Source of the DNA: Acidobacteriota bacterium
GTDB taxonomy: Bacteria; Acidobacteriota; Blastocatellia; RBC074
Direction: 5' to 3'
Assembly (NCBI GenBank): GCA_031423495.1
Contig: JANPFP010000212.1
Span: forward strand, 9,466 to 73,465
Length of the DNA stretch: 64,000 nucleotides
In this document: piece after piece, positions 3,656-62,037 of the stretch
How positions within the stretch are numbered: position 1 is the stretch's first letter
How the letters are laid out: each line of letters starts with the position of its first letter
Notes under the pieces: model-generated
Told to the model about the DNA's origin: nothing
The model's database searches: none
Seen by the model: the letters and a program-made list of their open reading frames with translations, nothing else
Position numbers and translations under genes: made by a program

Positions 3656-4801
3656 CTAATCAAGCGCCTGCAACAAATCGGCCAGCAAGTCATCAGCGTG
3701 TTCCAACCCAACTGAAACCCGCAACAAACTCGGTGGCGCGGTGGATTGCGGCCCTTCGACCGAAGCGCGATGTTCGATCAAACTCTCAACACCGCCCAAA
3801 CTCGTAGCGCGTTTGAACAACTGAACTTTGCTCACCATTCGCAAGGCTTCTTCCGCGCCGCCTTTGACCTCTAGCGAAAGCATGCCGCCGAAAGGTTTCA
3901 TCTGACGCGCAGCAATCGCGTGGCCTTCGTGCGCGGGCAGCCCCGGGTAATTCACTTGGGCGATGCGCGCGTGGCGGCTTAATTCTTCGGCGAGCCGCGC
4001 GGCGCTTTGGCATTGGCGCTCGACACGCACGGCCATCGTCGCGGCGCTGCGTTGCAGCAACCAGCAATCGAAAGGCGCTGCGCCCGTACCGCCGATGGTT
4101 TGCATGGTGCGGATGCGTTCAAAGAATTCGTTGGCTTCTTTGTCTTCTTTATCTTTATCTTTATCTGGGGGGCGCATCACGATCACGCCGCTCAACGCAT
4201 CGCTGTGGCCGCCGAAATACTTGGTGGTCGAGTGCATCACGATGTCTGCGCCGTGTTCAAACGGTCGCGTACACATCGGCGTCGCCCAAGTGTTGTCACA
4301 CGCGAGCAAGGCGCTGTGCGCGTGTGCGAGTTCGGCGGTCGCGGCAATATCGGTGATGCGCAAGCGCGGATTGGAAGGCGTTTCGATCCAGACGAGTTTG
4401 GTGTTGGGTTGCCACGCGGCTTCGATCTCGGCGCGGTCGGTCGTGTTGACGAATGAGACTTGCAGTCCCCAGCGCGCGTAAAGCGATTCGATGACGGCGC
4501 GCGTACCAAAATAAATATCGAGCGGCGCGATGACGTGATCGCCCGGCGCAAGCGCGTGCATCACGGCTTGCGTCGCGGCGTTGCCCGAAGCGAACGCCGC
4601 CGCCGCCGTGCCGCCTTCGAGCGCCGTGCAAATCTGTTCAAAGGCCTGACGGTTCGGATGACCGAGGCGCGAGTAAAAATATTCGCTCACGAGTTGGTTG
4701 TCGGCGTTGCGCTCATACGTCGTCGAAAGCACGAGAGGCGGCGCGACTGAACCGTAAGCAGAAAGTTCAGCGGCATGTAAAGCAAGGGTTTCAGGTTGCA
4801 T
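3656..4801 (-). CDS. PLP-dependent trans-sulfuration enzyme (cystathionine gamma-synthase/beta-lyase/Met gamma-lyase family)
   Basis: Cys/Met-metabolism PLP family signatures (…STTKYFGGHSDALSGVIV…, LSLEVKGG); contains an unusual KDKDKDKEDKE insertion. Confidence 0.8.
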   Translation of the reverse strand: MQPETLALHAAELSAYGSVAPPLVLSTTYERNADNQLVSEYFYSRLGHPNRQAFEQICTALEGGTAAAAFASGNAATQAVMHALAPGDHVIAPLDIYFGTRAVIESLYARWGLQVSFVNTTDRAEIEAAWQPNTKLVWIETPSNPRLRITDIAATAELAHAHSALLACDNTWATPMCTRPFEHGADIVMHSTTKYFGGHSDALSGVIVMRPPDKDKDKEDKEANEFFERIRTMQTIGGTGAAPFDCWLLQRSAATMAVRVERQCQSAARLAEELSRHARIAQVNYPGLPAHEGHAIAARQMKPFGGMLSLEVKGGAEEALRMVSKVQLFKRATSLGGVESLIEHRASVEGPQSTAPPSLLRVSVGLEHADDLLADLLQALD

Positions 4802-4870
4802 AGGGCTGAATCATAGCTGAAAAGCCAAAGGCAAAGGAATCACGGCAGAGGAATAATCTTGCGGTTCAAC

Positions 4871-4913
4871 CAGAAAGCGCAAAAGCCACAAAAGCTAATT
4901 TTGCTTTTGTGGC
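4871..4913 (-). terminator. rho-independent terminator of the giant protease gene (bidirectional-looking)
   Basis: 11-bp stem gccacaaaagc/gcttttgtggc with 7-nt loop, T-runs on both sides. Confidence 0.6.
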
Positions 4914-4979
4914 TTCTGTGCTTTTTGGTGGCGAATACCCAATCAAGTCAACGCGAGTGTTCGATTTCTCAACCAGCGC

Positions 4980-7900
4980 TTACTTGATATTCACTTCGAC
5001 GGGATTCGCCCACTTGCCGTCAACTTTAAGCCAGAGCTTGACGAGACCGCTGCCCGCCAACGTACGCGGCAAGAGCAGGTTGGTTTGATCGAGTCCGGCG
5101 AGGCTGCCTTGCTTGTCGAGATACAACACGCTGACTTCAGTACCCACACCAGCGGTGGTTCCGCCGATGAAACATTGCACGTTGCGCAAGTCGCTGCGAT
5201 GGCGAAAGCCCGTGCCATAAAGCACTAAGTAAACCTGATCGGTCGTCGGCCCCAGATCAATCGGCGTCGCAACCATCTTGCTCGTCGTGCTGTCAAAACG
5301 GGCGATGTTCTCATACGTATTAACCCCGTTGCGCACGCGCAGCGCCGATCCGGCGACGACGCCTTGCCCTGAAGCGTTGGACGTGAACAACCCCGGATTG
5401 ACGCCGCTGATCATCAACGCACCGCTTTCCCAGCGTCCGGCGTTGTCGCTGATGATGACTTCGGCAAGGCCGGGCGCGAGTTCAGTTGGCAGCAAATAAT
5501 TCACCTGCGTTTTAGCCACGAAAAATAGCGGCGCGAGGAAGCTGGCTCCGGCGCTGTCATAAATCGTAACCGTCGTACCGCCCAGCGTGGTCGGCAACGG
5601 CAAGCTATTCGCCACCAAAGTGCCGGACGCGAGGTCAGAGCCAAACGCCGCCACAATGCCATCGCGCGTCGCTGACTGATCGCCGTTGTTGCCGTAATGC
5701 GCCGCCGAAACACTGACCGTCACGCGCACTACGCGGCAATCAAGCGCATTCGACGATCCGCCGCCGAGATTCGCCGTCGAAGCCGGATTGAACACAGTCA
5801 CTTTTGCCGTACCCAAATTGGCTACGACTAAATCAGTTGCCGGAATCGTCACGCGCAATTCCATGTCGCTGACAAAAGTCGTCGCACGCTCTGCGCCGTT
5901 CCAACGCACCACGGAATTCGAAAGGAAGTTGCGTCCGTAAACCGTCAGAGTGCGCGCCGCGCCCAGCGCCAGTGCGTCAGGATAAGTCCGCACCGCAGTC
6001 GGCAACGGATTAGCGGTTGCGCTGCCCGCTTGCGTCACGTTCACGGTTTGCCCGGCAATCACCACTTTGAAATTACGTGCGGCTGATGCGGCGTTGGGCT
6101 GCGTCATCAGGGCTACGGTTCCGTTGCCGGTGCCATAAATGCCCGCCGTAATTTGTGCCGCTACGTCGCTGGCCGCCGAAGACCATGAACAACTGTTGGT
6201 CGCCATCACTGAAACATTCGTGCTGCCGCCACCCGCAGGCACGGTCAACGTCCCCGGACTTACGCTGAAGCTGCACGTCGGCGCAGCCGCTTGCGTGATC
6301 GAAAAGGCTTGCCCCAACACCTGAATCGTACCCGTGCGCGCTTGCGTCGTGGTGTTCGTCGCCAGCGAATAACTCACTGCGCCGCGCCTGACGCCGCTCG
6401 CCGTTGCCGCATCGAGCATGATCCACGTCGCGCTGGTGGTCGCAGCCCAACGGCAATCGTGGCCCGTACTCACCGTCACGTTATAAACGCCGCCCGCGTA
6501 ACTGGCGCTATGCGCGACAGGCGTGAAATAGGCCGTGCAACTCACGGGTGCAGCCGCTTGATTCACCGTATAAAGTTTGTCACCGATCATGATCGAACCG
6601 GTGCGCGCGCCGCCGCTGTTCGCCGCGATATTAAAGTTGACTGCGCTGCTCGTCTTGCCGGTAATCACCAGCCAGTCGACGTTGCTGGTCGCGTTGAATA
6701 CGCAACCCAACGGATTGGTCGTCGCGCTCGCCGAGCCTGAGCCTGCCACGGCAGCAACACTGACGACACTCGTCGGCAAGGTCACGCCGCAATTCGCATC
6801 TTGCGACACGATGAAAGTGCGCCCCGCTACGGTCAGCGTCGCTTGCCGCTGATTCCCTGTCGTATTCGGACTCAACGCAAAGCCGACCGTACCGTTGCCG
6901 ACGCCGCTCGCCGCCGTAGTAATCGCCAACCAGCTTTGCCCTGCGGCTTGATTGACCGAAGCTGTCCAGCCACAACCGGCAGTCGTCGTCACCGCCACCG
7001 TACCCAACGAAGCCTGTGAACTGAAGGTCTGCCCGCTGATCGTCGCGTTGTAAGCACAACCACTCGCCTGGGTCAGTGTGAACGTCAATCCGTTGACGGT
7101 AATCGTCGCACTGCGCGCGACGCCCGCGTTGGCCGCGACCGCAAAAACCATTGTGCCGCTGCCGCTGCCCGATGCGCCGCTCGTGATTGTCAACCATGCC
7201 GCGTTGCTCACGGCTGTCCATGTGCAACCCGTACCCGCCGTCACACTGATGCTGCCGGTGCCACTGGTCGCCACCGTTGAAGCACTGGTAACGTTGATCG
7301 TTACCGAACAGTCTCCGGCTTGCGAGACCGTGAAAGACTTGCCGCCGACCGAAATTGCGGCACTGCGCGCTACGCCTGTATTCGCCGCGACGGAATAATT
7401 CACCGTGCCGTTGCCTGTGCCTGTGGCATTCGTGAACGTCAACCAACTCGCATTGCTCACCGCCGTCCAGCCACAACCATTGCCTGCCGTCACGGCAAAG
7501 CTACCCGTACTCGCCGCCGCCGCAACACTCGCGCTGGTCACGCCCAACGTGACGTTACAGCCACCTGCCTGAATCACCGTGAAGGACTGACCGCTTACCG
7601 TAATCGTCGCGGTACGCGCCGCGCCCGTATTCGCCGCGACAGAAAAATTCACCGCGCCATTGCCACTGCCCGACGCACCGCTCGTAATCGTCAACCACGT
7701 TTGATTGCTCACCGCCGACCACGTACAACCAGTTCCTGCCGTCACATTGAAGCTGCCCGTATTGGCAGCCGCCGCGAAGCTTACGCTGCTCGTGTTCAAC
7801 GTGATCGCACAGCCCGCCGCTTGCGTTACTGTGAACGTCTGCCCACCTACGCTAATCACTGCACTGCGGCTCACGCCGGTGTTCGACGTTGCAGAATAAT

Positions 7901-10900
7901 TCACTGCGCCGTTGCCGCTGCCCGACGCACCATTCGTGATCGTCAACCACGACTGATTGCTCGTCGCCGTCCACGTGCAACCGCTTCCCGCTGTTACGTT
8001 GAAGCTGCCCGTACTGCTCGTTGCCGCTACGTTCGCACTGTTCGCGCTCAACGTGATCGTGCAACCACCCACTTGCGTCACCGTGTAAGACTGACCGCCC
8101 ACGCTAATCACTGCGCTGCGGCTCGCGCCCGTGTTCGCCGCGAATGAATAACTCACCGTAGCGTTGCCGCTGCCCGACGCACCATTCGTAACCGTCAGCC
8201 ACGTTTGATTGCTCGTCGCCGTCCACGTGCAACCGCTTCCCGCTGTTACGTTAAAGCTGCCTGTGCCGTTGGTCGCGGCGACGTTCGCGCTCGACGCATT
8301 CAACGTGATGGTGCAACCACCTGCTTGCGTCAACGTGAACGATTGCCCGCCCACGCTAATCACCGCGCTGCGGCTCGCTCCCGTGTTCGCCGCGAATGAA
8401 TAACTCACCGTACCATTGCCGTTGCCCGAAGCACCGTTCGTAATCGTCAGCCAAGATTGATTGCTGGTCGCCGTCCACGTGCAACCATTGCCCGCTGTTA
8501 CATTGAAACTGCCCGTGCCACTCGTTGCGGCTACGTTGGCGTTCGTCGCGCTCAACGTGATCGTGCAGCCACCGGATTGTGTTACGGTGAAAGTTTGCCC
8601 CGCCACCGTAACCGTACTCGTACGCGCTGCGCCTGTGTTCGCAGCTACGCTCAAACTCACCGTGCCGTTGCCATTGCCCGACGCGCCGCTGCTGATCGTG
8701 ATCCAACTGGCATTGCTGGTGGCCGTCCATGCGCAACCCGGATTCGCCGTCACATTGACGCTCGCGGTTTGAATGCCTGCGCCTACGCTGGCGCTAGTGG
8801 CAGACAAACTGTAACTGCAAGCGACCGGCGTGAAGCTCGGCGTTTGCGTGTTGTTGCAACCTGATTTGATAAGCATCAGCGGCCCCGCCACGACACCCGC
8901 CGGAACCGTCACATTGATTTGCGTATCGCTCACCACCGTGAACGACGCGCTGACGTTGTTGCTAAAGAGTACGCTGTTGACGCCCGTGAAATTGCTGCCG
9001 GTGAGATTGACGGTCGCGCCTGCCACCGCGCTGGTGGGCGCGAGGTTCACGCCCGCCGGACAACTTGCCGAGCCTGATTCGAGCAAAAACGAAGCGTCGC
9101 TCATGTCGAAAAAGATATTGCCGACGGCTTCGACCTTGATGCGCGTCTCACCCGAAGAGAGTCCGGCAGGAACCGTGATCGTTTCGCTGCCGTCATTTGG
9201 CGTCGCGCCGAGAATCGTCACCGGAAAGGTTTCGCCGTTATCAATCGAGAGCGAAATTTTCACGTTCGCGCAACTGACCGGCGCGTTGTTGGTGTTGTTG
9301 ACGCTCCACGTCACGGTTTGTTGCGTACCGCCCACCCAGCGCACGCGCGTATCGGGGGCCGTTACCTGAAACGGGCCGGAAGCACCGTCCACGCTTAACA
9401 ACACGTCGTCATCGGCAACGCCGCCGCGCTGGTCGCGTACGATGACTTTGAAATTGAGATTGCGCGAAACGCGCGGCAAATGCTGCGCGACATACAAACC
9501 GTCGGCGTCCTGCAAAGGCGGTTCGTTGTTGTAATCCTGAATCAAAAACAGTTCGGGAAAGAGGTGCTGCGGGCTAAGCGTAGGCGAAAACGGTCGAAAG
9601 ATCGGGCGCGTCGTCGAAGCCGGGTCGCCCTCATCCGTGAAAGCCGGATTGCCGAAACTCGTGCCGCCCGCGTCATATTGTTCCCACGAATAAGTCAGAT
9701 TGGCGTAATCGCCGTTGTCGGAATCGTTCGCCGCTGCCGTCAAAGCGAAAGGCGTGAGTTTGGGAATGCGACGGTCTACGCCCGCATTCACCGTCGGCGG
9801 CGTATTGCCGCTGGGCGTCGCCGTCGAGCAGGTCGCTTCGTTTTGCATGAACTCAGCGATGGCATTCACCGCGCCGCTGTGAAAGTGCAACGCCCGCCCG
9901 AACGCAATGGCATTGCACGAACCGGAATAAGCCATGATCGTGAAGCCGCTGCCTGACTCATAGGCGGTGGTGGCGTTACGCTGCCCCGCGCAATTGCCCG
10001 TGTTGTCGTTGAAGGTGTGATGCGTGTTGAACTGATGGCCGAGTTCATGTGCAATGCGCCCGATATAAAACGGATGCCCTACGCCCACCGAGGTCGGAAT
10101 CAAACTGACGCCGCCACCTTTGTATTCATCTATCACGCAAGCGACGCCGATATAAGCCACGCCGCTCGCGCCCGTGCCCAACACATGGCCTACGTCATAG
10201 TTGGCCGCGCCGATGACGTTGTTAAAGTGCAAACGCGCTTCTTCCAACATCGTGCCGGCGCTGCCGTTGGTGAACGGGTCGCTCGTCGTGTCGTAAATCA
10301 ACTGATCGTTATTAGCCACGAGATTGAAATGCGCCGACAGATCGCGTTCATAAATCAGGTTGACCGCATTCAACCACGTGTTGACCGAAGCAATCGCGCC
10401 CGGCTTATTGCCGCCGCCGAACGCGAGCATATATTCATAGGTCGTCGCCAACGCCAGCCGATAGTTGCGGCGCGTCGCTCCCAAATTAATCACGCTCAAA
10501 TCGCGCGCAGCGGTGTTCTCACGCTGCGGCAAGCCCGGCACTTCTTCGGTCAGGCAATCATATTTGCCCGCCGCGACCGCGTCTTTGCTCTCATAGCTGA
10601 TGTATTGCCCATCGTTCGCTGAACCCACTGGCTCGACGCTATAGGCCGTGTCAGGCGTAGCGATCAACGCATATAACCCGCGCGGCGACCAGGTGAAACG
10701 CGCAATCAGCGCGGGATCATCCAACCCCACGGCGCGATAACTTTTGATTTCAGGAAAGCGTGCGGCTAAGGCGGCTTCCATATTCGGCGAGTCTTCGATG
10801 GCGAAACGCGCGAAGCTGCCATCGGGCAAAGGCAAGGTCACTGTCGGACGCACGCCTTTCGTGTTTTCGAGCGGAGCTTGCGCGAGTTGTCGTTGCCACG

Positions 10901-11162
10901 CGCTACGTTGCAACGTGACGCTCTGAAAGCGCCGTCCCGCCGCCACATTCACCGGCTTGCGGCTGAGGGCGTCGTTAGCCAACGGCAACCAGATGCCATC
11001 GGGCGAACCTTGCGCGGCACTCACCACCGCGTGATGCGCGTTGCCGCTGCTATGAAAAATCAGCCAGCCCATCAAACCTAATCCTAAACATCGAAACAGG
11101 CTGGTTCCGAAAAAGGCTAAACAACGACTCACGGTGTGTGAAAAACTTATGCTCACGGTCAT
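4980..11162 (-). CDS. giant secreted multidomain protein: metzincin-like zinc metalloprotease ([11 protein letters not shown]), about 11 tandem BACON-like Ig domains, Solibacter-type C-terminal domain
   Basis: ORF track (4980-11390); start trimmed to ATG 11162 (MTVSISF…, hydrophobic signal-like N-terminus). HExxHxxxxxH zinc motif; repeated C…W…GNGT…TQ modules; C-terminal …[48 protein letters not shown] resembles the TIGR03437-type Solibacter C-terminus. Confidence 0.8.
5975..8885 (-). repeat. tandem array of about 11 BACON-like domain repeats (~255-270 bp period) inside the giant CDS; boundaries approximate
   Basis: Near-identical DNA blocks (e.g. gtgcaaccgcttcccgctgttacgttgaagctgcc at ~7975, ~8225, ~8475) and repeated protein modules. 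Confidence 0.7.
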
Positions 11163-12127
11163 AGCTCCATAGTTGAGGATGCAACTGAAAATACAGTTGA
11201 AGATGCGGATGCCGAGGGATTGCCTGCGGGGGTGGTGGCTGACTGGGGGCCGACCTCTAAAAGCTGACATATCCGTTCGCGCTGAAACCAGGCGACCGCA
11301 CGGGAGACGCTGCCTTGTGCAACGCGTCTGGCAAGCCGACGCATTGCGGCACGGGGTTTCAAGTGTTTTTTGACGCACGCGCCCTAACACTCAAAGGCCA
11401 TCAGACCTCGCTTCAGTGCGAACGGATAGCTTGCGGGGATGCAAGCTCGATACTTTGGGAAAATAGAGAAAATCGCTCAACAGATCGCCTTGCACGAATG
11501 GCTCAAAAGGCTTTGGCAAAAGGGCAAGGCGCTGAGGTCGTGAGCGACAGCGTTTTACTCAATCGGGTCAAATGGACGGCAGGGAAAAATAGACAAGGCC
11601 TATTCATTTTCAGACGGGCACCACAACCACGCAGCGTAACTGGCATCCCTAACAGTCACGCTGCACCATCACGTCTCTCAAAATGAATAGGCCCTGAACG
11701 AACGGCGCGTGGGGGTGGCATTTCGTAAAAAGTAGGGGGGGAGAAACGAAAGCCGTGCGCCTAAATGGAAGGAATTCCGGCGGGAATTCAACAATTTCAA
11801 AGTGGTTCAAGCTGGAGCCGCAGCACCTCGGGGGCGCGCATCCATATACAAAAAGTTAAAAGAAACAGGGCCGATTATCCCACCAACACCCAGCGTAGCT
11901 CTTTTTCCCCTGCAACGCTGTTGGCACTTGACGTTACGAATCTATGGTTTGGCATCCCTAACAAACCGCAAATCCGTGTGTTGGCAAACTACCAGCCCTG
12001 TTTCTAACTGACAGAGCGATCTTTCACCTTCATCGCAACTCTACCAAGCCACGACGATTAATCCATCCGTCACCAAACACTTGACCTCTCTGTCACCCTA
12101 TAGTGCTGGCACTTCAGTTCTATTACA

Positions 12128-12160
12128 GCCCGCTTGATCGTGCGCTGTTTTTTTAATCTT
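12128..12160 (+). terminator. candidate plus-strand rho-independent terminator at the end of the 0.8-kb noncoding region
   Basis: cagcccgc…gcgctg stem followed by ttttttt; no annotated plus-strand gene upstream. Confidence 0.35.
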
Positions 12161-12202
12161 TAATCTATGGGGGCTGTGCCTTGCTGCGTTAGATGGACGA
12201 GT

Positions 12203-13468
12203 TCAGGGCGATAGTTCAGCAATTCGTTTGAGCAGAAAGCGGCGCACGGGTTGGCTCGAAGTCAGTTCATACGCGCGGCGAAAACAAGCGATGGCTTCGG
12301 TTGGCTGGCCTGCTTGTCGCAACAGTTCGCCGCGCGTGGCATAAAGCGGATAGTAATTTTTGAGCGCGCGATGTTCGCGCAAACTTTCGAGTTCGCTAAT
12401 CGCCGCCGCTGCGCCTCGCACTTTTGCGAGCGCGACGATGCGGTTGAGCGCAACCACCGGCGAAGGCTTGCGGCGCAACAACTCTTCATAACAATCCAGC
12501 ACGCGCGGCCAATCGGTCGCGTCGAAACTGACAGCCAGCGTGTGACACGCTGCGATTTCGGCTTCGAGATGCAAGTCGCTGAGTTCAGTGCCGCTGGCCG
12601 AACGCTGAAAATAATGCAGCCTGCGCCGCATCAACGCCGCGTTCCATTCCGTACGGTCTTGCTCTGACAACAGCAACAATTCGCCCGCCGCGTCGCAACG
12701 CGCACTGAGCCGCGCCGCCTGAAAACACAACAGCGCCGTCAGCGCCTGCACTTTGGGTAGCCCCGTTTCAGAATGGCTCGCCAGCAATTCGCACAATCGA
12801 ATCGCTTCAAAACACAAATCGGTACGCACCAGTTCTTCGCCTTCGAGCGCGCTGTAACCTTCGTTGAACATCAGGTAAACGGCTTTCAACACCGGCTGCA
12901 ACCGCGCGGCTAACTTGTCAGGCGCAGGCATCTCTAACCGCACTTGCTGTTCGCGCAATCGTTGCTTGGCGCGGGTGAGCAGCTTGGCAATCGCCGCTTC
13001 CTGCGCGAGAAAGGCGCGCGCGATTTCTGACGTACTGAATCCGCTGACGGCCTTCAACGTAAGCGCGACCTGGCTGTCTTCAGAGTTCGCCGGATGGCAA
13101 CAGATGAACATCATCCGCAATTGATCGTCGCGCACTTCGCGCGCGAACGCGGCTTCGGTCTTGGTCGTTTCGTCGGTCAACGTTTGCCAGGCTTGCGCGA
13201 ATGCTTCGTCGGTCGCGCGCCAGCGTTGGTCGTGGCGCAATTGATCGAGCAGCCGATTTTTCGCCACTTGAATCAACCACGCCAACGGGTGGTCGGGCAC
13301 GCTGCCATAAGGCCAGACGCGCAACGCCCGCACCAGCGCTTCCTGCACGGCGTCTTCGATTTGATCGAGCCGTTCGAGACCGAACAGCCGCGTCAACACG
13401 GCGATCATCTGTCCAGCGCGCTGGCGGAACAAATGATCTACGGATTGTTGAATCGTGTCGTCTGTCAC
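12203..13468 (-). CDS. ECF sigma factor with long C-terminal TPR-like extension (ECF42-type)
   Basis: Sigma70 region 2 (…IEDAVQEALVRALRVW…) and region 4 (…GFSTSEIARAFLAQEAAIAKLLTRAKQRL) followed by ~230-aa extension; start set to GTG 13468, 8 nt after the YCII stop (ORF track extends to 13558, overlapping YCII). Confidence 0.75.
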   Translation of the reverse strand: MTDDTIQQSVDHLFRQRAGQMIAVLTRLFGLERLDQIEDAVQEALVRALRVWPYGSVPDHPLAWLIQVAKNRLLDQLRHDQRWRATDEAFAQAWQTLTDETTKTEAAFAREVRDDQLRMMFICCHPANSEDSQVALTLKAVSGFSTSEIARAFLAQEAAIAKLLTRAKQRLREQQVRLEMPAPDKLAARLQPVLKAVYLMFNEGYSALEGEELVRTDLCFEAIRLCELLASHSETGLPKVQALTALLCFQAARLSARCDAAGELLLLSEQDRTEWNAALMRRRLHYFQRSASGTELSDLHLEAEIAACHTLAVSFDATDWPRVLDCYEELLRRKPSPVVALNRIVALAKVRGAAAAISELESLREHRALKNYYPLYATRGELLRQAGQPTEAIACFRRAYELTSSQPVRRFLLKRIAELSP

Positions 13469-13475
13469 GATGCCT

Positions 13476-13808
13476 TTACTCTTCGATTTCGCGCAGTTCG
13501 ATCCGCCCGCCGTATTTAAGATGCGGGCAACTCTGCGCAACCTTGACCGCTTCGTCATAGTTCGCGGCCTGCACGATGAAATAACCGCCCATCACTTCTT
13601 TCGCTTCGGCATAAGGGCCGTCCACGACGCGCAGTTGTTCGTTGTGTAATTGCAAATGGCGGCCTCCTTCGTCTTTCAACTTGTGGCCGACGGCGGCGAC
13701 CTGGATGCGCCAGTCGCCGTATTCCTTGATAATTGCCTGAATCTCTCCCGCCGAAACATTGTCGAAATCCGCCGGATTTTCGTGTAACAAGAGCATAAAT
13801 TGAGCCAT
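13476..13808 (-). CDS. YCII-related (DGPF) domain protein
   Basis: 110 aa, conserved partner of ECF42 sigma factors; GGAG-like RBS (aaggagaat) before ATG. Confidence 0.7.
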   Translation of the reverse strand: MAQFMLLLHENPADFDNVSAGEIQAIIKEYGDWRIQVAAVGHKLKDEGGRHLQLHNEQLRVVDGPYAEAKEVMGGYFIVQAANYDEAVKVAQSCPHLKYGGRIELREIEE

Positions 13809-13949
13809 GAAATTCTCCTTGCGTGTCTGCGTGAATTGCCGTTTGTTAAGCCTATCGGTGACAGGCCGTCGTCATCCCCTAAACGAATAACGAACCGCTG
13901 GCAGGACATCAAAAGCGCAGCTTGTGTCATTTTATCTGGCACCCATGCC

Positions 13950-13990
13950 AAACACGGCAGCCGCTGTCGAATCTTATCGCAGCGGGCTGC
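13950..13990 (-). terminator. candidate terminator hairpin downstream of the beta-propeller gene
   Basis: ggcagcccgctg…cagcggctgcc inverted repeat followed by GTGTTTGG on the minus strand. Confidence 0.35.
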
Positions 13991-14023
13991 CGTGTCAGAA
14001 CACCAATCGTTTATTTATCGGCG

Positions 14024-17000
14024 TTATGGCTTGCCGTCCCAATTGCCTGCGACTGGCAGGTCGCCGACTTGCCCGAAATTCACGGTGAAGGCTTCGGCAA
14101 CTCTGAAGCTCTGGAAGCGATTCGTCAGCGTAAACTTATCGTTCTTGAATACACCAAACGTGTCTACGCCGTCGCCGTCCCAATCGCCTGCGAGGGGCAA
14201 GGCGTCAGATGCGCCGAACTGTCCCACTTGAAAAGCTTCGAGCGGATTGAAATCGGCCAGGCCATTGGTGAACAACCAGCTACCGAGGCGAAAGATACCG
14301 ACCGTGTCGAAGCCGTCGCCGTTCCAGTCACCCGCCACCGGCAAGTCGCCCGTGACGCCGAAAGCGAACGTGGCATCAGGCAGCGGCGCAGAGCCGTTGA
14401 CGTTCTGCCCGTTCACGCCATTCGTCACGAGAAACAAACCCGCGCGGAATACGCCCGGCGTATCAATCCCGTCACCGTTCCAGTCGCCCGCAATCGGCAA
14501 ATCATTCGACTGACCGAAGACAATCGTTCGGGTGATCGCCTGACATTGCGGCGAGCCGCAACCAGGCACGGGGGGCCGCAAAATCAAAATGAACTGCCCG
14601 ACCGAAGGGCGAAAGATGCCTGCGTCATCGTCGCCGTCACCATCCCAATCGCCCGTGACCGGAAGCGCATCGGAGACAAAATTAAAGTTCACGGTTTGGT
14701 CAGGTGCGCCCGCCGTGTTGGAATTCCGCAGCAAAAAGTCGGTGAGCGCAGGCCGAAAGACCCCAATCGTATCAGCCGGAGTCGCGCTGATTTTGGCGAT
14801 GAACCCGTCGCCCGCGCCGCGAAACGCGCTTTGAAAAACCCCCGGCGTTACCGGCAAATTACCGTTCGCCACACCCGCCAGATAGACATTGCCTCGTGAG
14901 TCCAGAGCGACGCCTTTGGCAAAGGTATCGGCTCCGCCAAACGTCGTTGAATAAAGCAGCTTCGCCGTCGTCGTCGCAGAAACCGTAGCTTCGATTTTCG
15001 CCAGAAAGCTGGAACCCGCCAGATTCGCCGTCAAAGGGTTGACCGAAAGAAAGCTCGCGCCCGATCTCGTCGTACCCGCCACATAAGTATTGCCCGCCTG
15101 ATCAAGGGCGATGTCCAGCCCCGCCTCGCTGCTGTCTCCGCCCAGATAGCTGCAATAAAACAGGGCCGTGCCGTCCGCATTCAGCTTGGCGACGTAAGCC
15201 TCGCCTTCAGTCAACGTCGTTCTAAACGCATTCTTGAGCGGGAACGTACTCGCAAACGAAAAAGTTTGGCCCGTGATATACACGCGTTGCTGCGCGTCAA
15301 CTTTGATGGCCTCTATCGTGTCAACATCACCGCCGCCGAAATAAGTCTGATAGGTCAGCGATGCGGCTCCGCTCGCTTCGGTATCAATCTTGGCGACAAA
15401 GCCATCCGTGAACCCTTTCAGGTTGGATTGCAGCGGCGGCAAAGATTGTCCTGCGGGACTTTTCACGGGCAGGTCTTCCGAAAAAGTGGTTCCGCCCAGA
15501 TAGGCATTGCCTGCGTTGTCGGTGGCGATGTCTACGTTTAATCCCAAACCGGGTGCCGCTTCGATGTCGCTGCCGCCCACATAACTCGCATAGCGCAACG
15601 AACCGTTGCCGCTCAACGCCGGATCAAAGACAGCCACAAAGGCATCTGCCAAAGCCAGACTGCCCAGCGAATTCTGAAAGCCGTTTTTGGTCGGCAGGTT
15701 GTGAGAAAGGGTAAAGCCCGCGATATAGATTTTGTTGGCCGCGTCCACCGCAATCGCCTGCCCTGCATCAGAGTTCCCGCCGCCATAATAGCTGGAATAA
15801 ACCAGGCCATTGCCCGTGGCATTCAACACCGTGACGTAAGCATCGTTACCACGGCACGCTCCCACCAGACACGAAAGAAAGGTGCCATTGCCTTGAAAGG
15901 CTCCGTCGGTGACGGGGAAATCCGCCGTGCCGCGCGTGAAAGTGGCACCGGTCAAACAGGCTTGCCCATTGCTCATCACCGCGATGTCTTCGCCGGTGTC
16001 GGCATTGCGGCTGCCCAGATAAGTGCAATACACGGTGTCGGTTCCGTTGGCGTTGAGCTTGAGTATAAAAGCATCGCCCTCAGCGTCTTTGCGCTGGCTT
16101 TGCAAAGCTCCCTTGACCGGCAAATCTGAAGACAACGTCGTGCCGACGATATAAGCATTCCCCGCCGCATCCACCGCCACAGCCGTAGCAATATCCAGCA
16201 AACTGCCGCCCGCGTAAGTCGCATAAAGCAATTGCGGATCAATCACCAGCGGACGGCTCGCGTCATAAGCGCCCAGCGCAAAACTCACTTCGCGCTTTTC
16301 GTTCAGCACGTATTGGCCCGTCACCATCTCACGCCCTTGCGCACCTTCCTGATAAATAACCGGCGCGTGCTGAATCAGTTCGCCCGCCGAAGTTTGCAAC
16401 ACCAGATTGCCCGCGTCGTCGAGCCGCAGACTTTTCGCGCCTTCAAACCGTAGCTCAATCTGATTGGAATCAGCGCCCGGTTGCACGATGAAGTCATATT
16501 CCAACGTCCGCTGATTGCCGTACCAAACCATGTCTACGCCCGGCCAGACTTCGCGGTATTTCACCTGACGATAAGTCGGCACATCCGTCTGCCACTGGCT
16601 TCGATCATTACCGATCAGGTAATTCGCTTTGCCTTCGAGTTGGTCGAGCGCTTCGGCTGACGGCGCGACGTTCGCACTCACAAGGTTGAGCTTCAGCCAA
16701 CTCCGCGACGGAGTTTCTTTGTCTTTACCGTTCAACGCCAACGTAGCCGCGCCGCCTGACAGATAAAGCGAATAGCCATCGCCGCGCGACAGGTATTCAA
16801 CCGATTTGTCGGTTTGTCCGCGATTGGGTTCAAAGGCCAACGGTAACTTGCCGTAATTTTCCAGCACGCGCGCTTTCGCCTCAGCCTCAGTCGCGCTGCT
16901 CGCCTGCGCTGGCGAAGTGCGCGACCACCACGCCAGCCCTCCGGTTCCGATCAATAAAATAACTATCAATGCCGTTCCGATTAAGGGTTTGCGTCTTTTC

Positions 17001-17026
17001 GCCAACCTGTTGATGAGCTTATACAT
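14024..17026 (-). CDS. large secreted beta-propeller repeat (SBBP) protein with C-terminal FG-GAP/VCBS-like repeats
   Basis: N-terminal TM/signal (LIGTALIVILLIGTGGLAWW); repeated …DIATAVAVDAAGNAYIVGTT.S.DLPV… SBBP units; C-terminal AGDWNGDGxDTxGxFR x5. Confidence 0.75.
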   Translation of the reverse strand: MYKLINRLAKRRKPLIGTALIVILLIGTGGLAWWSRTSPAQASSATEAEAKARVLENYGKLPLAFEPNRGQTDKSVEYLSRGDGYSLYLSGGAATLALNGKDKETPSRSWLKLNLVSANVAPSAEALDQLEGKANYLIGNDRSQWQTDVPTYRQVKYREVWPGVDMVWYGNQRTLEYDFIVQPGADSNQIELRFEGAKSLRLDDAGNLVLQTSAGELIQHAPVIYQEGAQGREMVTGQYVLNEKREVSFALGAYDASRPLVIDPQLLYATYAGGSLLDIATAVAVDAAGNAYIVGTTLSSDLPVKGALQSQRKDAEGDAFILKLNANGTDTVYCTYLGSRNADTGEDIAVMSNGQACLTGATFTRGTADFPVTDGAFQGNGTFLSCLVGACRGNDAYVTVLNATGNGLVYSSYYGGGNSDAGQAIAVDAANKIYIAGFTLSHNLPTKNGFQNSLGSLALADAFVAVFDPALSGNGSLRYASYVGGSDIEAAPGLGLNVDIATDNAGNAYLGGTTFSEDLPVKSPAGQSLPPLQSNLKGFTDGFVAKIDTEASGAASLTYQTYFGGGDVDTIEAIKVDAQQRVYITGQTFSFASTFPLKNAFRTTLTEGEAYVAKLNADGTALFYCSYLGGDSSEAGLDIALDQAGNTYVAGTTRSGASFLSVNPLTANLAGSSFLAKIEATVSATTTAKLLYSTTFGGADTFAKGVALDSRGNVYLAGVANGNLPVTPGVFQSAFRGAGDGFIAKISATPADTIGVFRPALTDFLLRNSNTAGAPDQTVNFNFVSDALPVTGDWDGDGDDDAGIFRPSVGQFILILRPPVPGCGSPQCQAITRTIVFGQSNDLPIAGDWNGDGIDTPGVFRAGLFLVTNGVNGQNVNGSAPLPDATFAFGVTGDLPVAGDWNGDGFDTVGIFRLGSWLFTNGLADFNPLEAFQVGQFGASDALPLAGDWDGDGVDTFGVFKNDKFTLTNRFQSFRVAEAFTVNFGQVGDLPVAGNWDGKP

Positions 17027-17223
17027 TGCCGTGTTCCGCCTTTTTGGAAGTGTCTTGTTAAAAAATCAAAGTGATTTGCGACAGACGGAACATAGACAAG
17101 TCGGGCTGAGAAGTCTTAAAGGCGTTTTGAACTTTTTATGAAAGATTTCTAAACGGCGCGCAGCTCCGCCAGGCATAAGTCCTTTTCTTCTTTGTGACTT
17201 TGCGGCTTTGCGTGAGCGGCTGG

Positions 17224-18759
17224 CTAGGTAGGTAACAAGGCAGGTTCGGCTAAGCGTATGAGCGCGGCGCTGAGTTCGCGCTGAAAAGGCCCGCATAAAT
17301 GCGTGAGGTCAACCGTTGGCACGTCATCGCGCAACTGACGGTAAAAAGTGATGGCTCCTAAAGCGCGCGCCTCATCATCAAAGAGTGGCACGCGCAGTTG
17401 CCAATGCTGTCGCAAGGAATCCGTTGTGAAAGTTACTTCTTCCGCCGAGGCATTGCGCCACAGCCACACCACCCGTTGAGGGTTATCCGGCAAGATGACC
17501 AGCCGCTGTGGTATATTTATCAAGAGGTCTTCTGCTATTTCTAAAGTAACTAAATCAAATTCTTTCGTCGCCAACATAGCTTCCAGCGCCGCAAAAAAAT
17601 CCGTCGGCGTTTCGGCGCTTGCCAAACTGTTATAACTGCGCCTGACACCGACGTTCACCGCCAACGCGCGTCGCGTGCGGCTAACACCTTGTTTGATCTG
17701 GCTGCCTAACTCGCTGAACTCGGCATAACGCAAATGCTGTACGCCATAAATCAAACCAATGCCTAGCACAAAAAATATCAGCGCACCTAACTCACGCTTT
17801 GGGTTAAGTAACATAAGCCCGAATAACGCAAATAACGCGCTCACCGCGTAAAGCGCAATTACCACCTGCCGTTGTGATAAACCTCTTTCGAGCAATACGT
17901 GATGAATGTGTCCGCGATCTCCGGCAAAAATCGGCTTACCGCTAAGAAAGCGCCGCACGATAGATAACCCGACTTCCATCAACGGCAGGCCGAACGAAAT
18001 CAACGGAATCGTCACCGCCACCAGCGTAGTCCCCTTTTGCGAACCGGCCAGCGACAACACCGCCGCCATAAAACCCAAAAACAGCGCGCCGCAATCGCCC
18101 AGAAAAATCGTCGCCGGATTAAAGTTGTAACGTAAAAATCCGATTACCGCGCCGATTAAAATCACCGCCAACAAACTAATTTCTGGCTGCCCTTGTACGA
18201 CTGAAAATACCAAAATCGAAGTCAACGCAAACACCGACGCGCCCGCTGTCAATCCGTCTATGCCGTCAATTAAATTAAAGGCATTCGTGATGCTCAAAAT
18301 CCATAAAGCCGTAGCCGGAAAATTCAACAGCGTCGGCAATTGCCAGAATCCGCCCGGCGTAGACAACACGTTAATGCGATAGCCGCTGGCATAAACTAGG
18401 CTGGCCGCCAACAACTGAACCGCAAATTTCAACGTCGCACTGGCATTCTTAAAATCGTCATAAACCCCCAACGCAAAAACCAGCGTCGCCGGAACTAACA
18501 ATCCGAATAATAAAAGGGGTAAATCCTGCTTGAAGTTACGGCTGACTAAGTTACCCAAAAAAGGCACGCAACAAAGCGTCAGAATAAAGGCTAGATAAAT
18601 CGCTACACCGCCGAATTGCGGTGTAGGCCGGGCATGAATGCGCCGCTCACGGTCAGGCAGCGCCATCGCTCCCCATCGAATCGCCCAACGGCGCACGAAT
18701 GGCGTCAGCAAAAATGTCAGCAAAAACGCCAGACCAAATAAAATCACGTAAGAACGCAT
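17224..18759 (-). CDS. polyprenol-phosphate sugar-1-phosphate transferase (WecA/MraY family, GT4-like) with ~160-aa C-terminal extension of unknown function
   Basis: Multi-TM N-terminal 350 aa typical of WecA/WbpL priming transferases; last gene of the minus-strand EPS operon. Confidence 0.75.
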   Translation of the reverse strand: MRSYVILFGLAFLLTFLLTPFVRRWAIRWGAMALPDRERRIHARPTPQFGGVAIYLAFILTLCCVPFLGNLVSRNFKQDLPLLLFGLLVPATLVFALGVYDDFKNASATLKFAVQLLAASLVYASGYRINVLSTPGGFWQLPTLLNFPATALWILSITNAFNLIDGIDGLTAGASVFALTSILVFSVVQGQPEISLLAVILIGAVIGFLRYNFNPATIFLGDCGALFLGFMAAVLSLAGSQKGTTLVAVTIPLISFGLPLMEVGLSIVRRFLSGKPIFAGDRGHIHHVLLERGLSQRQVVIALYAVSALFALFGLMLLNPKRELGALIFFVLGIGLIYGVQHLRYAEFSELGSQIKQGVSRTRRALAVNVGVRRSYNSLASAETPTDFFAALEAMLATKEFDLVTLEIAEDLLINIPQRLVILPDNPQRVVWLWRNASAEEVTFTTDSLRQHWQLRVPLFDDEARALGAITFYRQLRDDVPTVDLTHLCGPFQRELSAALIRLAEPALLPT

Positions 18760-18776
18760 AACTTAAAACTACCGCA

Positions 18777-20036
18777 TCAAGAAGACGACACCGCGTCACG
18801 ATCAACCATCATTGCCAACGGCGCAAAACGCTCCTGCAACGCCCCCACATAACGCAGCGCCAACGTTTCGCGTAAATAATGCGCCAACACAAACACTTTG
18901 CCCCGTTCGCCCAACCGCCGCCGCAACGGCTCATCATCGCGCAATTGTTCAATCGCACCCACCCACGCTTCGACATTTTCCGACACAATGCACAAGCCGC
19001 CGCCCGCGCGTTCGACCAATTGCGCTGCTTCGCCTGCCACATTGCAAATCAGCGGAACGCCGTTTCCCATCAACTCGAATAACTTAGAAGGCAGCACTTT
19101 TTGAAACAATGGCAAATTCTTGAGCGGAACCAAACCCACATCGCTGGCGCGATAAAAAGCCAGCAAACGGTCACGCGGCTGCTGGTCAATAAACCTGACA
19201 TTGGTCAATTGCATCGCCACCGCCTCGGCCTTAAGCCGGGCTTTTTCCGCGCCTTCGCCTACGAATAAAAAAATAACCTGCGGCAACCTGGCAGCTGCCT
19301 GCAAAACCTCTTCCAACCCGTGCGACATCCCGTGCGTGCCGATATACGAAACAATAAATTTACCTTGCAAGCCTAGCTCTTCCCGCAGTTTTTCAGGCGC
19401 AAGGCTCGACGTAGCTAAATATCCCGCATCAATGCCATTGGGAATCACGACAATCTTTTCCGGCGCGATTCCCTTCCCCAATAAATATGGCCTGGTTGAT
19501 TCAGCCACCGGCACAATCAACGCCGCCCGACGGTAAAGGAATAACTCGATAGCTTCGAGCGTGGCAATCACAAACCGGTTCCGCAACACGCCCAACTCAA
19601 TCGCCGATTGCGGCCAGATGTCGCGTACCTCAAACACAAAGGGCGCGCGCTTTAACACACTGAATAAATAGGCCGCCACTGCGCAAAAAAATTGCGGCGA
19701 AGTCCCGACTACGACTTCCGGCCTGCGCGTAAATAAACTTCCCAATAACAAAGAAGAGCCAAAAAAAGACAGAAAGTTCAGCACGCGCTTAACAAAGCCT
19801 TTGTTCGGCGCGACATATAGCCACGTACGCAACAGTGCCACGCCTTTCACTTTTTCCCGTCGCATCCATACGCCTCGATACTCAGGATGAATCACGCCCG
19901 TCGGATGATTCGGCATACCCGTGATAACCGTCACCTCATGCCCCGCCGCCGCCCAATGCTGCGCATGCTCTGCCGTACGCGCCGCTGGCGCTCCCATTTC
20001 TGGCGGATAGTACTGGCAAAAAAACGTAATTCGCAT
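18777..20036 (-). CDS. glycosyltransferase family 4 (WbuB-like)
   Basis: MRITFFCQYYPPEMGAPAARTAEHAQHWAAAGHEVTVIT… N-terminus and GT-B C-terminal E-x7-E region. Confidence 0.8.
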   Translation of the reverse strand: MRITFFCQYYPPEMGAPAARTAEHAQHWAAAGHEVTVITGMPNHPTGVIHPEYRGVWMRREKVKGVALLRTWLYVAPNKGFVKRVLNFLSFFGSSLLLGSLFTRRPEVVVGTSPQFFCAVAAYLFSVLKRAPFVFEVRDIWPQSAIELGVLRNRFVIATLEAIELFLYRRAALIVPVAESTRPYLLGKGIAPEKIVVIPNGIDAGYLATSSLAPEKLREELGLQGKFIVSYIGTHGMSHGLEEVLQAAARLPQVIFLFVGEGAEKARLKAEAVAMQLTNVRFIDQQPRDRLLAFYRASDVGLVPLKNLPLFQKVLPSKLFELMGNGVPLICNVAGEAAQLVERAGGGLCIVSENVEAWVGAIEQLRDDEPLRRRLGERGKVFVLAHYLRETLALRYVGALQERFAPLAMMVDRDAVSSS

Positions 20037-20039
20037 TGC

Positions 20040-21839: not shown

Positions 21840-21843
21840 TACA

Positions 21844-61804: not shown

Positions 61805-61937
61805 CCCAGGGTGAAGCCCTGGGTTAGGTGGCGATAAATAACAAAAGCCCTGAAAGGGCGTGATAAATCGTTGGCTATCACGCCCTTTCAGGGCTTTTTG
61901 AAATTTCGGTTGCGTAACCCAGGGCTGACACCCTGGG
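61805..61937. promoter_or_regulatory. two dyad elements CCCAGGG-N5/6-CCCTGGG (61805-61823, 61918-61937) flanking the terminator; candidate enhancer (UAS) sites for the NtrC-family activator
   Basis: cccagggtgaagccctggg and cccagggctgacaccctggg read directly; located 60-190 bp upstream of the sigma54 promoter. Confidence 0.35.
61843..61900. terminator. strong bidirectional rho-independent terminator (19-bp stem) after the response-regulator gene
   Basis: gccctgaaagggcgtgata…tatcacgccctttcagggc flanked by aaaa/ttttt. Confidence 0.7.
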
Positions 61938-62037
61938 CTATTTTATTTTGCCCCGTTGGGGCACTCAGAAGTTCTCGTTTGACGTTTGATTGCCAACTAA
62001 AAACTATCGCGCAGCGTTTGCCTGTCAGCCGAAGCTG

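Follow-up and report, generated by a model that had tools for sequence, protein, structure and literature searches.

The gene described here lies at 4980..11162 on the minus strand of a 64,000-nucleotide (nt) stretch of DNA from an uncultured Acidobacteriota bacterium (Blastocatellia; contig JANPFP010000212.1), to which we refer below as the window. It encodes a protein of 2060 amino acids (aa) that combines a metzincin-like protease with a long chain of beta-rich domains. From the N- to the C-terminus, the order would be a signal peptide, a prodomain of about 185 aa, a catalytic domain and about 1,600 aa of beta-rich sequence. The latter would consist of two immunoglobulin (Ig)/PKD-like domains, an IPT/TIG domain, 11 BACON units, another IPT/TIG domain and the domain Soli_cterm, giving a stalk of about 16 all-beta domains. 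The architecture is already public but uncharacterized, an identical entry included: NCBI holds a protein (P0001) that begins at Met31, is 2030 aa long and 100% identical. What is added here is the assignment of a prodomain, the mode by which the number of BACON units changes, the scale and terminal position of the Soli_cterm family, and an RNA associated with the gene.

The gene and its boundaries

The coding sequence is complete by the list of open reading frames (ORFs) and its translation, and ends with a stop codon at 4980-4982. It is part of a single intact frame that spans 4980..11390 when counted from a GTG. Starting from the ATG at 11162, the frame yields 2060 aa with the N-terminus MTVSISFSH..., which is kept in the two closest genomes. 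These are Acidobacteriota metagenome-assembled genomes (MAGs), L001 (MTVFTSF...; 91% aa identity in the N-terminal part of the protein) and L002 (MTVFIRF...; 80%). A conserved GGAG precedes this ATG by 2 nt and a GTG two codons on (11156) by 8 nt, and because of this spacing the GTG at 11156 may be the true start, as an alternative to the ATG. We discard the longer frame that begins at the GTG at 11390: the region 11172-11271 is poorly conserved and has indels, and conservation returns at the GGAG and the MTV.

The first 45 or so residues (11028..11162) read as an export signal, with a basic stretch, a 12-residue hydrophobic run and then SSGNA. Every relative inspected has an equivalent hydrophobic N-terminus, and the AlphaFold2 (AF2) model of the protein is disordered until about aa 46. 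Since the basic and hydrophobic segment is common to all the inspected relatives, passage across the inner membrane would be by the Sec route.

At the other end, a perfect 13-bp palindrome (AAGCCACAAAAGC / GCTTTTGTGGCTT) with a T-rich tail is found 65 nt past the stop codon (4883..4915, minus strand), between the protease gene and the next one, which encodes a Cys/Met-metabolism pyridoxal phosphate (PLP) enzyme (3656-4801). The palindrome is likely the intrinsic terminator of the protease gene, which would then probably end its own transcript and form its own transcription unit. A sigma-70 promoter scan found none on the strand of the gene; such a scan says little for Acidobacteriota. The protein as a whole is under purifying selection, the ratio of nonsynonymous to synonymous divergence (dN/dS) being 0.19-0.22 between orthologs.

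The protease head

The catalytic domain (about aa 230-450; 9813..10475, minus strand) is reprolysin/adamalysin-like (M12B) by hidden Markov models (HMMs) and by Foldseek. Pfam Reprolysin_4 spans aa 230-418 (4e-25; 89-93 bits against a cut-off of 22), and Reprolysin_5, Reprolysin_2 and Reprolysin_3 also match the domain. The zinc motif HExxHxxxxxH occupies aa 372-382 (10017-10049) and is found in 119 of 119 homologs. The eighth position of the motif, which is Gly in metzincins (HExxHxxGxxH), is Asn379 in this protein (codon 10026-10028). Gly is present at this position in 91 of the 119 homologs and Asn in 14, while the three closest relatives read HELGHQFGTHH, that is, with Gly. The Met-turn follows downstream as TIMAY, in the pattern E-SGSG-TIM-Y, where M410 is conserved in 95% and E402 and G406 in 100% of the sequences. 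Judged by these features, the protein is a metzincin M12B-like peptidase: all the defining features tested are present except the motif Gly, which is variable in the family. The metzincin-like zinc protease of the original prediction, an earlier reading made from the DNA letters, is thus borne out by HMM scores above cut-off and by the zinc motif at aa 372-382.

Residues 1-230 had no Pfam match when scanned as a sub-segment, and the evidence for a prodomain is structural. An AF2 model covering aa 31-520 (predicted local distance difference test, pLDDT, 86; predicted template modeling score, pTM, 0.89) was aligned by Foldseek with zymogen ADAM17 over both the prodomain and the catalytic domain (E 1.4e-10, 481 columns), and with profragilysin-3 over 420-428 columns, the prodomain again included. 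The alignments to these two zymogens suggest that the approximately 185 aa after the signal peptide (about aa 46-229; 10476..11027, minus strand) form an adamalysin-type prodomain. Over the catalytic half, the model aligned with ADAM33 and snake-venom metalloproteinases at target-normalized template modeling (TM) scores of 0.70-0.76; the Foldseek matches to ADAM17, ADAM33 and the snake-venom enzymes had E values of 1e-10 to 1e-6. A PDB sequence search with the N-terminal 781 aa gave no significant match.

In ADAM proteases, a cysteine switch is located at the end of the prodomain. At the same place the present protein has Cys203 (in YDCLTEE), which is kept in 118 of 120 homologs and is a candidate cysteine switch. 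It belongs to a set of five cysteines (203, 342, 391, 416 and 445) conserved in 92-100% of the 120 sequences.

The catalytic domain is followed by a beta-rich region (aa 451-700; 9063..9812, minus strand) whose only Pfam matches are below threshold, a PKD-like one and Ig-type ones resembling Kre9_KNH and Invasin_D3. The region is nonetheless well conserved, with many invariant columns across 60 homologs, and belongs to a core of about 700 aa found family-wide. The first IPT/TIG domain comes next (aa 701-781; 8820..9062, minus strand; Pfam TIG, 26.9 bits against a cut-off of 20.9).

The BACON array

The array fills aa 782-1716 (6015..8819) without gaps and consists of 11 tandem units, recognized with Pfam BACON and BACON_2 and with an HMM built from the units. 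All are read from the minus strand: R1 (8568-8819), R2 (8316-8567), R3 (8064-8315), R4 (7812-8063), R5 (7560-7811), R6 (7311-7559), R7 (7059-7310), R8 (6792-7058), R9 (6540-6791), R10 (6276-6539) and R11 (6015-6275). The usual unit length is 84 aa or 252 bp (8/11 units), the other lengths being 83, 87, 88 and 89 aa, and the linkers between abutting units are of 3-5 residues. The units share the pattern C...C-x-W...GNGTV...AR...V-x-Q (TQ), with two cysteines in each. The original prediction of about 11 modules was right in the count, but their length was put at about 88 aa, which is too long for most of them.

Assignment of the units to BACON appears secure. In a scan of the whole protein, Pfam BACON matched in 10 stretches (5e-47), together with BACON_2. 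When units were scanned singly, R1, R2 and R4-R10 scored 25.7-40.7 bits each against the Pfam BACON (PF13004) cut-off of 25, so that nine of the ten units scanned passed. The tenth, R11, had no Pfam match but was recognized at 39 bits (E 3e-14) by an HMM built from the remaining ten units; R3, which was outside the single-unit scan, is 86% identical to R2. The BACON-like character that was claimed for the modules is therefore supported for the singly scanned units by Pfam and for R11 by the unit HMM, and the HMMs place the units in BACON rather than in another Ig-like family. The array is central in the protein and the host acidobacterial, unlike the N-terminal, Bacteroidetes setting behind the BACON name.

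At the DNA level the units are less alike than had been thought. Tandem Repeats Finder reports 5.4 copies at 7373-8738 with 76-78% matches. The long identical nucleotide stretches that had been claimed for the repeats are found only among R2-R4, which are 81-86% identical (the maximum being between R2 and R3), with longest exact words of 47, 33 and 22 nt; every unit pair outside R2-R4 is 45-74% identical and shares exact words of at most 16 nt. Even R2-R4 are separated by synonymous divergence (dS) of 0.52-0.91, values that are noisy as they come from 84-codon units, with dN/dS of 0.10-0.17. Between units in general dN/dS is 0.10-0.31, which indicates purifying selection on the repeats.

Change of copy number

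The number of units differs widely among relatives. By the unit HMM, there are 11 units here, 10 in P0003 (from L002), 9 in P0002 and 7 in P0004 (from L001). Among further relatives there are 12 in P0005, 8 in P0006, 7 in both P0007 and P0008, 2 in P0015 and 1 in P0016. The differences among close relatives are confined to R2-R6, and unit maps against P0002, P0003 and P0004 define this part of the array as a variable interior block (7311..8567, minus strand). By contrast with the interior, R1 and R7-R11 are 1:1 orthologs in the close relatives at 74-97% identity, the exception being the last unit of P0003 (58%).

The comparisons also suggest how the number changes. L001 has exactly 1008 bp (4 x 252) fewer than the window, and its one unit standing for R2-R6 is chimeric: the 5' part is R2-like (93%), the middle R5-like (90-93%) and the 3' part R6-like (83-96%). 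In P0002, which has two units fewer, the junction unit agrees with R2 over the first half and with R4 over the second, at 38/42 in each case. Whole-unit differences and chimeric junctions point to in-register unequal homologous recombination in the array interior. A pair of more distant relatives, P0005 and P0015, sharing an Hfq-PdxA upstream context, are 65-71% identical outside the array and have 12 and 2 units, respectively (L045 4001-10420 and L050 3001-6876; both with Hfq, PdxA and the RNA described below), of which only the first and the last correspond. This pair is the largest copy-number contrast seen.

As for timing, orthologs of the protease are separated by dS of 0.28-0.40 in the comparison with L001 and 0.53-0.70 with L002. 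Since dS among R2-R4 is at least 0.5, the duplications that gave rise to them are not younger than the L001 split, and the copy-number difference from L001 would thus be, at least in part, due to loss in relatives. The recent expansion proposed in the original prediction finds no support in these values, the closest units being no less diverged than the nearest orthologs. The other proposal, of a length-variable and recombining locus, fares well between relatives (1, 2, 7, 8, 9, 10 or 12 units, with chimeric junction units), the variation having been seen between species-level relatives (dS of at least 0.28). A scan of a metagenome collection returned nothing closer than 53% identity. In sum, on the sequences compared, the edge units are stable orthologs, and the interior gains and loses whole 252-bp units by what reads as unequal recombination, over a range of 1-12 copies.

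The C-terminal module

The array is followed by the second IPT/TIG domain (aa 1717-1830; 5673..6014, minus strand), which matches Pfam TIG at 25.4 bits and NCBIfam CoaZ_rpt_PGGG (NF058597) at 85 bits over aa 1719-1808. The last 230 residues (aa 1831-2060, ending in ...VEVNIK; 4983..5672, minus strand) are a single copy of Soli_cterm (TIGR03437), with 103.4 bits against a cut-off of 29.05, in agreement with the Solibacter-type C-terminus suggested originally. An AF2 model of aa 1717-2060 (pLDDT 90, pTM 0.82) is all-beta, and its predicted strand pattern is that of one IPT-like sandwich and two further beta-sandwiches that would form Soli_cterm. Foldseek with this model gave only generic matches (Ig, Fab, plexin; TM about 0.2) and no specific relative, and a PDB sequence search with the C-terminal 344 aa gave no significant match.

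TIGR03437 is annotated merely as "uncharacterized" in NCBIfam, and our literature search found no paper mentioning it. The family is nevertheless large, with 7,896 representatives of 50% clusters at E<=1e-3 and 1,937 at E<=1e-30. Soli_cterm is the end of the protein in 112 of 114 aligned homologs, the common endings fitting [VIL]x[IVF][KR]. It follows passengers that are unrelated to each other: PKD, IPT, BACON, cohesin, Kelch, SBBP propeller, peptidase S9 and FGE-sulfatase.

In the Bacteroidota members of the protease family, a type IX secretion system (T9SS) sorting domain (PF18962) is present at the C-terminus in place of Soli_cterm. The possibility that Soli_cterm is a divergent form of that domain was rejected: hhalign against the domains of nine Bacteroidota homologs gave a probability of 0.2%. 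In the present protein, the T9SS domain (PF18962 / TIGR04183) was sought and gave no Pfam match at E<=1. Thus, the two domains occupy the same position and are not homologous.

A structured RNA upstream of the gene

A non-coding stretch of about 1 kb between the start of the protease gene and a sigma-factor gene (12203-13558) is better conserved than the coding sequence. Positions 11290-12150 are mostly 90-100% identical to L001 and positions 11300-11800 mostly 84-94% identical to L002, the protease coding sequence being 90 and 80% identical, respectively. Small ORFs in the stretch were rejected as genes, there being no conserved ORF and the indels between relatives not being multiples of three. 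Two blocks persist in relatives whose protease is only about 52% identical: 11862-12019 (75-80% nt identity) and 11585-11697 (81-86%). A conserved RNA of about 550 nt, predicted to be structured, is recognized in seven genomes and lies at 11585-12137 of the window (minus strand). In relatives it is found at L001 7376-7925, L044 2007-2545, L045 2607-3121 and L050/L051 2210-2732, and at the contig starts of L002 and L043.

The 5' domain (11855..12137, minus strand) would fold into several helices and a small hairpin with the loop UAGGGAUGC. In an alignment of five genomes there are 83 predicted pairs, with 89.6% of the cells paired and 13 pairs changed on both sides, a number of double changes reached in none of 500 shuffles and compared with 3-8 in slid controls. 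The 3' part is a predicted hairpin of 103 nt (11594..11696, minus strand), with the invariant apical sequence UGUUAGGGAUGCCAG and then a U-rich tail, about 430 nt upstream of the start codon. Its minimum free energy is -53.4 kcal/mol (z = -6.0), and in seven genomes 96.9% of the pair cells are paired and 10 of the 42 pairs are changed on both sides. Of 500 shuffles, one attains this number of doubly changed pairs and none attains the other four measures, and slid controls give 1-3. Conserved G-U pairs indicate that the RNA is made from the protease strand. The invariant loop UAGGGAUGC is displayed in both blocks of the RNA, and the window contains two exact copies of the 14-mer TGTTAGGGATGCCA, where 0.19 would be expected. 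The loop presumably resembles CsrA/RsmA sites (GGA in a hairpin loop).

Among 51 loci, a covariance model and blastn locate the RNA only directly upstream of orthologs of the protease gene, in 7 distinct genomes (L050 and L051 being the same sequence). What lies beyond the RNA differs among these genomes: a gene for an extracytoplasmic function (ECF)-type sigma factor, an unrelated one read in the opposite direction, or Hfq-PdxA. Rfam 15 has no family matching the RNA at E<=1, and at E<=10 there are only chance-level matches on the opposite strand. The simplest reading of the comparative evidence is that of a new structured RNA linked to the protease gene: it could be a long leader or attenuator, or else a small RNA transcribed separately and ended by its own terminator.

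Two further features of the region may be mentioned. The segment from the RNA hairpin to the start codon (11270-11580, minus strand) is 84-100% conserved in L001, L002, L043 and part of L044, and is not conserved in L045 or L050. Inverted repeats of 23 nt, 87% complementary, are found at 11270-11292 and 11406-11428.

Host, family and neighboring genes

The host is acidobacterial, as the nearest syntenic contigs are from Acidobacteriota MAGs and the window contains an Acido-Lenti-1 RNA. The latter (Rfam; 61918-61963, plus strand; 44.8 bits against a gathering score of 37) fits an acidobacterial origin. The window is collinear with L001 in the blocks 3658-7697, 8165-13912 and 17263-22000. Together these cover about 14.5 kb of a 20-kb stretch, and the two sequences are 85-89% identical there at the nt level.

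Where the homologs are named, most come from MAGs of Acidobacteriota, Blastocatellia or Pyrinomonadaceae, under the label of M12 family or reprolysin-like metallopeptidases. BACON-like units, 1-12 in number, are carried by 57 of the 120 best homologs; 24 end in Soli_cterm and 17 have both. BACON on an acidobacterial M12 protease is therefore common, and not the notable feature that the original prediction took it for. Eleven units are near the top of the family range, a single homolog having 12. Our literature search found no paper joining the BACON domain with Acidobacteria, and nothing relevant on secretome and metalloprotease. In L046 (1-8127), two paralogous proteases are found in tandem 256 nt apart, P0016 (1 unit) and then P0007 (7 units), with the upstream RNA in neither.

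Directly upstream of the protease and the RNA is the gene for the ECF-type sigma factor (Sigma70_r2 + DUF6596 + TPR; 12203-13558, minus strand), which is syntenic in L001; its adjacency may reflect a regulatory link to the protease. In L049 (563-2368), a Sigma70_r2 gene and a TPR gene adjoin a paralogous protease. Further upstream, a gene for a 1000-aa protein with DUF7948 and an SBBP beta-propeller (14024-17026, minus strand) is absent from the otherwise collinear L001, where the 3.3 kb of 13912-17263 correspond to about 180 bp. From 17224 onwards there is a same-strand run of genes, of which the first four were scanned (17224-23976): GT4 family, GT1 family, heparinase II/III-like and a fused oxidoreductase. 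Minus-strand ORFs continue without interruption to about 46000. From the four genes scanned, the run looks like a large cluster for surface-polysaccharide biosynthesis, 6 kb from the protease. No BACON or Soli_cterm gene other than the protease was found in the window.

Comparison with known systems

With the ADAM/adamalysin peptidases (MEROPS M12B) the protein shares matches to the Reprolysin HMMs, the catalytic residues (three zinc-binding His and a Glu), a Met-turn and, by prediction, the fold of both prodomain and catalytic domain. It should be noted that the structural alignments to ADAM17 and profragilysin-3 have only 10-19% identity, with no PDB relative at the sequence level. The disintegrin, Cys-rich and EGF domains of ADAMs are absent here, and bacterial beta-sandwich domains are found instead. 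Fragilysin has an aspartate switch and no stalk. The nearest kin are uncharacterized M12 proteases of Acidobacteriota and Bacteroidota, which share the approximately 700-aa core (prodomain, catalytic domain and two Ig-like domains) at 34-91% identity. After the core, members of this family have a string of Ig-like domains that varies, and then a C-terminal module. The order M12, BACON(n), Soli_cterm is seen in 17 of the 120 best matches, whereas Bacteroidota members such as the Hymenobacter IPT/TIG proteins end in PF18962.

Tandem BACON arrays with a lineage-dependent count are known from crAssphage gp64, which has eight, and as linkers of Bacteroides glycoside hydrolases (PMC6949934). The array described here differs in its acidobacterial host and in its position, which is central in a protease, where the known ones are N-terminal in a glycan enzyme or part of a phage tail protein. 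It differs also in the conserved Cys pair of each unit and in having a unit, R11, that is under Pfam detection.

The general plan also recalls the Periscope Proteins (SasG, Rib, Sgo_0707, CdrA), where an N-terminal head is followed by small beta-rich domains in tandem, variable in number, and by a C-terminal end that is conserved, and where copy number changes by intragenic recombination (PMC8201768). Periscope repeats have high DNA identity and vary at the strain level, whereas the maximum here is 86%, most pairs are at 45-74%, and the relatives compared are at dS of 0.3-0.7. The heads of Periscope Proteins are adhesins and are surface-attached; here the head is a protease, and attachment would be through Soli_cterm. 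The protein does not qualify as a Periscope Protein, because its repeats lack high DNA identity, variation is seen between species-level relatives, and its C-terminal anchoring is conjectural.

A possible mode of action and its alternatives

We consider it reasonably probable that the protein is an exported M12B zymogen in which the BACON stalk serves as a spacer and Soli_cterm as a handle for envelope attachment or export. The protease would be made inactive, with the prodomain blocking the zinc site, possibly via Cys203, and would be activated by loss of the prodomain. The 22 repeat cysteines would form 11 intradomain disulfides. The protein would end up outside the cell, Soli_cterm acting as the envelope-attachment or export handle, a role suggested by its terminal place, its occurrence on many passengers and its standing in the position of the T9SS domain of Bacteroidota. 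The BACON chain would then be mainly a semi-rigid spacer that sets the reach of the protease from the cell surface, with copy number as an evolutionary adjuster of length, and the head would digest extracellular protein, for nutrition or for remodeling of the matrix. A spacer role would accord with the 3-5-residue linkers between the units, with the reading of the solved Bacteroides BACON domain as a linker (PMC6949934) and with the Periscope concept of stalks that vary in length (PMC8201768).

Several points weigh against this picture. Secretion, surface attachment, activity and substrate are all read from sequence and models. The protein has Asn in place of the metzincin Gly. Soli_cterm has neither T9SS profile similarity nor a specific structural relative, so its role as a handle is argued from position and promiscuity. 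Around the gene, no conserved neighbor suggests a dedicated partner for export or anchoring. BACON units could bind a ligand instead of, or besides, providing spacing. Finally, the dS values of single units are noisy.

In one alternative the array serves mainly for multivalent binding and directs the protease to a polymer of the cell wall or matrix, a glycan or a glycoprotein; the number of units would then set avidity and not reach. The original proposal for BACON was a role in carbohydrate binding, and the BACON arrays of phages have been suggested to attach to cell surfaces (PMC6949934). Purifying selection on the units and their conserved surface motifs (W, GNGTV, AR) would also fit, and so would the old and divergent edge units R8-R11, whose 1:1 retention in relatives is what individual roles would predict. 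The interior units, however, are interchangeable in number (1-12) among orthologs that are otherwise alike, and the only structural study cited reads the sole solved bacterial BACON domain, from Bacteroides, as a linker and not a glycan binder (PMC6949934). On balance we regard binding as the main function as rather unlikely. The same can be said, in our judgment, of the protease being freely released, in which case Soli_cterm would be a tag for secretion or a quality-control domain, cleaved or non-anchoring, and the stalk would aid solubility or stability; this we doubt, though there is something to commend it. Soli_cterm has no transmembrane or lipid-anchor feature and ends in a beta-strand (...VNIK), there is no anchoring partner gene nearby, and the Bacteroidota homologs bear a T9SS tag, which is of a kind cleaved on export. 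A 230-aa module, predicted to be of two sandwiches and conserved over thousands of proteins, is nevertheless large for a mere tag, and a stalk of 1,600 aa would be costly for a diffusible enzyme; neither argument is decisive.

The two remaining alternatives concern the integrity of the protein. The change of the metzincin Gly to Asn, at a position where the three closest relatives keep Gly, could mean a catalytically dead adhesin or pseudo-protease, but this is very improbable: Asn recurs in 14 of the 119 homologs, the protein retains every one of the three His, the Glu, the Met-turn and the conserved Cys, and the N-terminal 781 codons have a dN/dS of 0.19-0.21, no different from that of the Gly-bearing relatives. 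That the 11-unit array is an artefact of MAG assembly is more improbable still. Tandem repeats are a classic source of mis-assembly and the window is apparently from a MAG contig, but exact words are of at most 47 nt and mostly at most 16, and the frame is intact across 6.2 kb. The order of the units is moreover the same as in three independently assembled relatives, apart from the whole-unit differences. De Bruijn graphs with larger k-mers would resolve repeats sharing so few identical bases. Mis-assembly is thus unlikely because the exact identity between units is so small.

To return to the exported, surface-attached zymogen, a wider proposal can be put forward, to which we hold only tentatively, as it is more apt to fail than to succeed. 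The RNA and the protease may form a conserved unit in which the RNA controls production of the protease: it might be a new kind of long cis-acting leader or attenuator, or a small RNA titrating a protein that binds GGA loops, e.g., CsrA. Soli_cterm may in addition be the handle of an undescribed acidobacterial route of surface display or export.

Implications

Nothing here is surprising enough to alter current views, but the locus is of use in several respects. Acidobacteriota are abundant in soil and freshwater and their extracellular nutrient acquisition is poorly known; the locus offers a well-resolved case of a large, presumably secreted M12B-like protease. The array offers direct sequence evidence for a change in the length of an Ig-like stalk by in-register unequal recombination inside the array, with its edges fixed. 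Soli_cterm, found in thousands of clusters, terminal and promiscuous, stands out as a concrete candidate signal for sorting or attachment, of a kind not yet described. The upstream RNA, in turn, provides a handle on how the expression of these enzymes is regulated.

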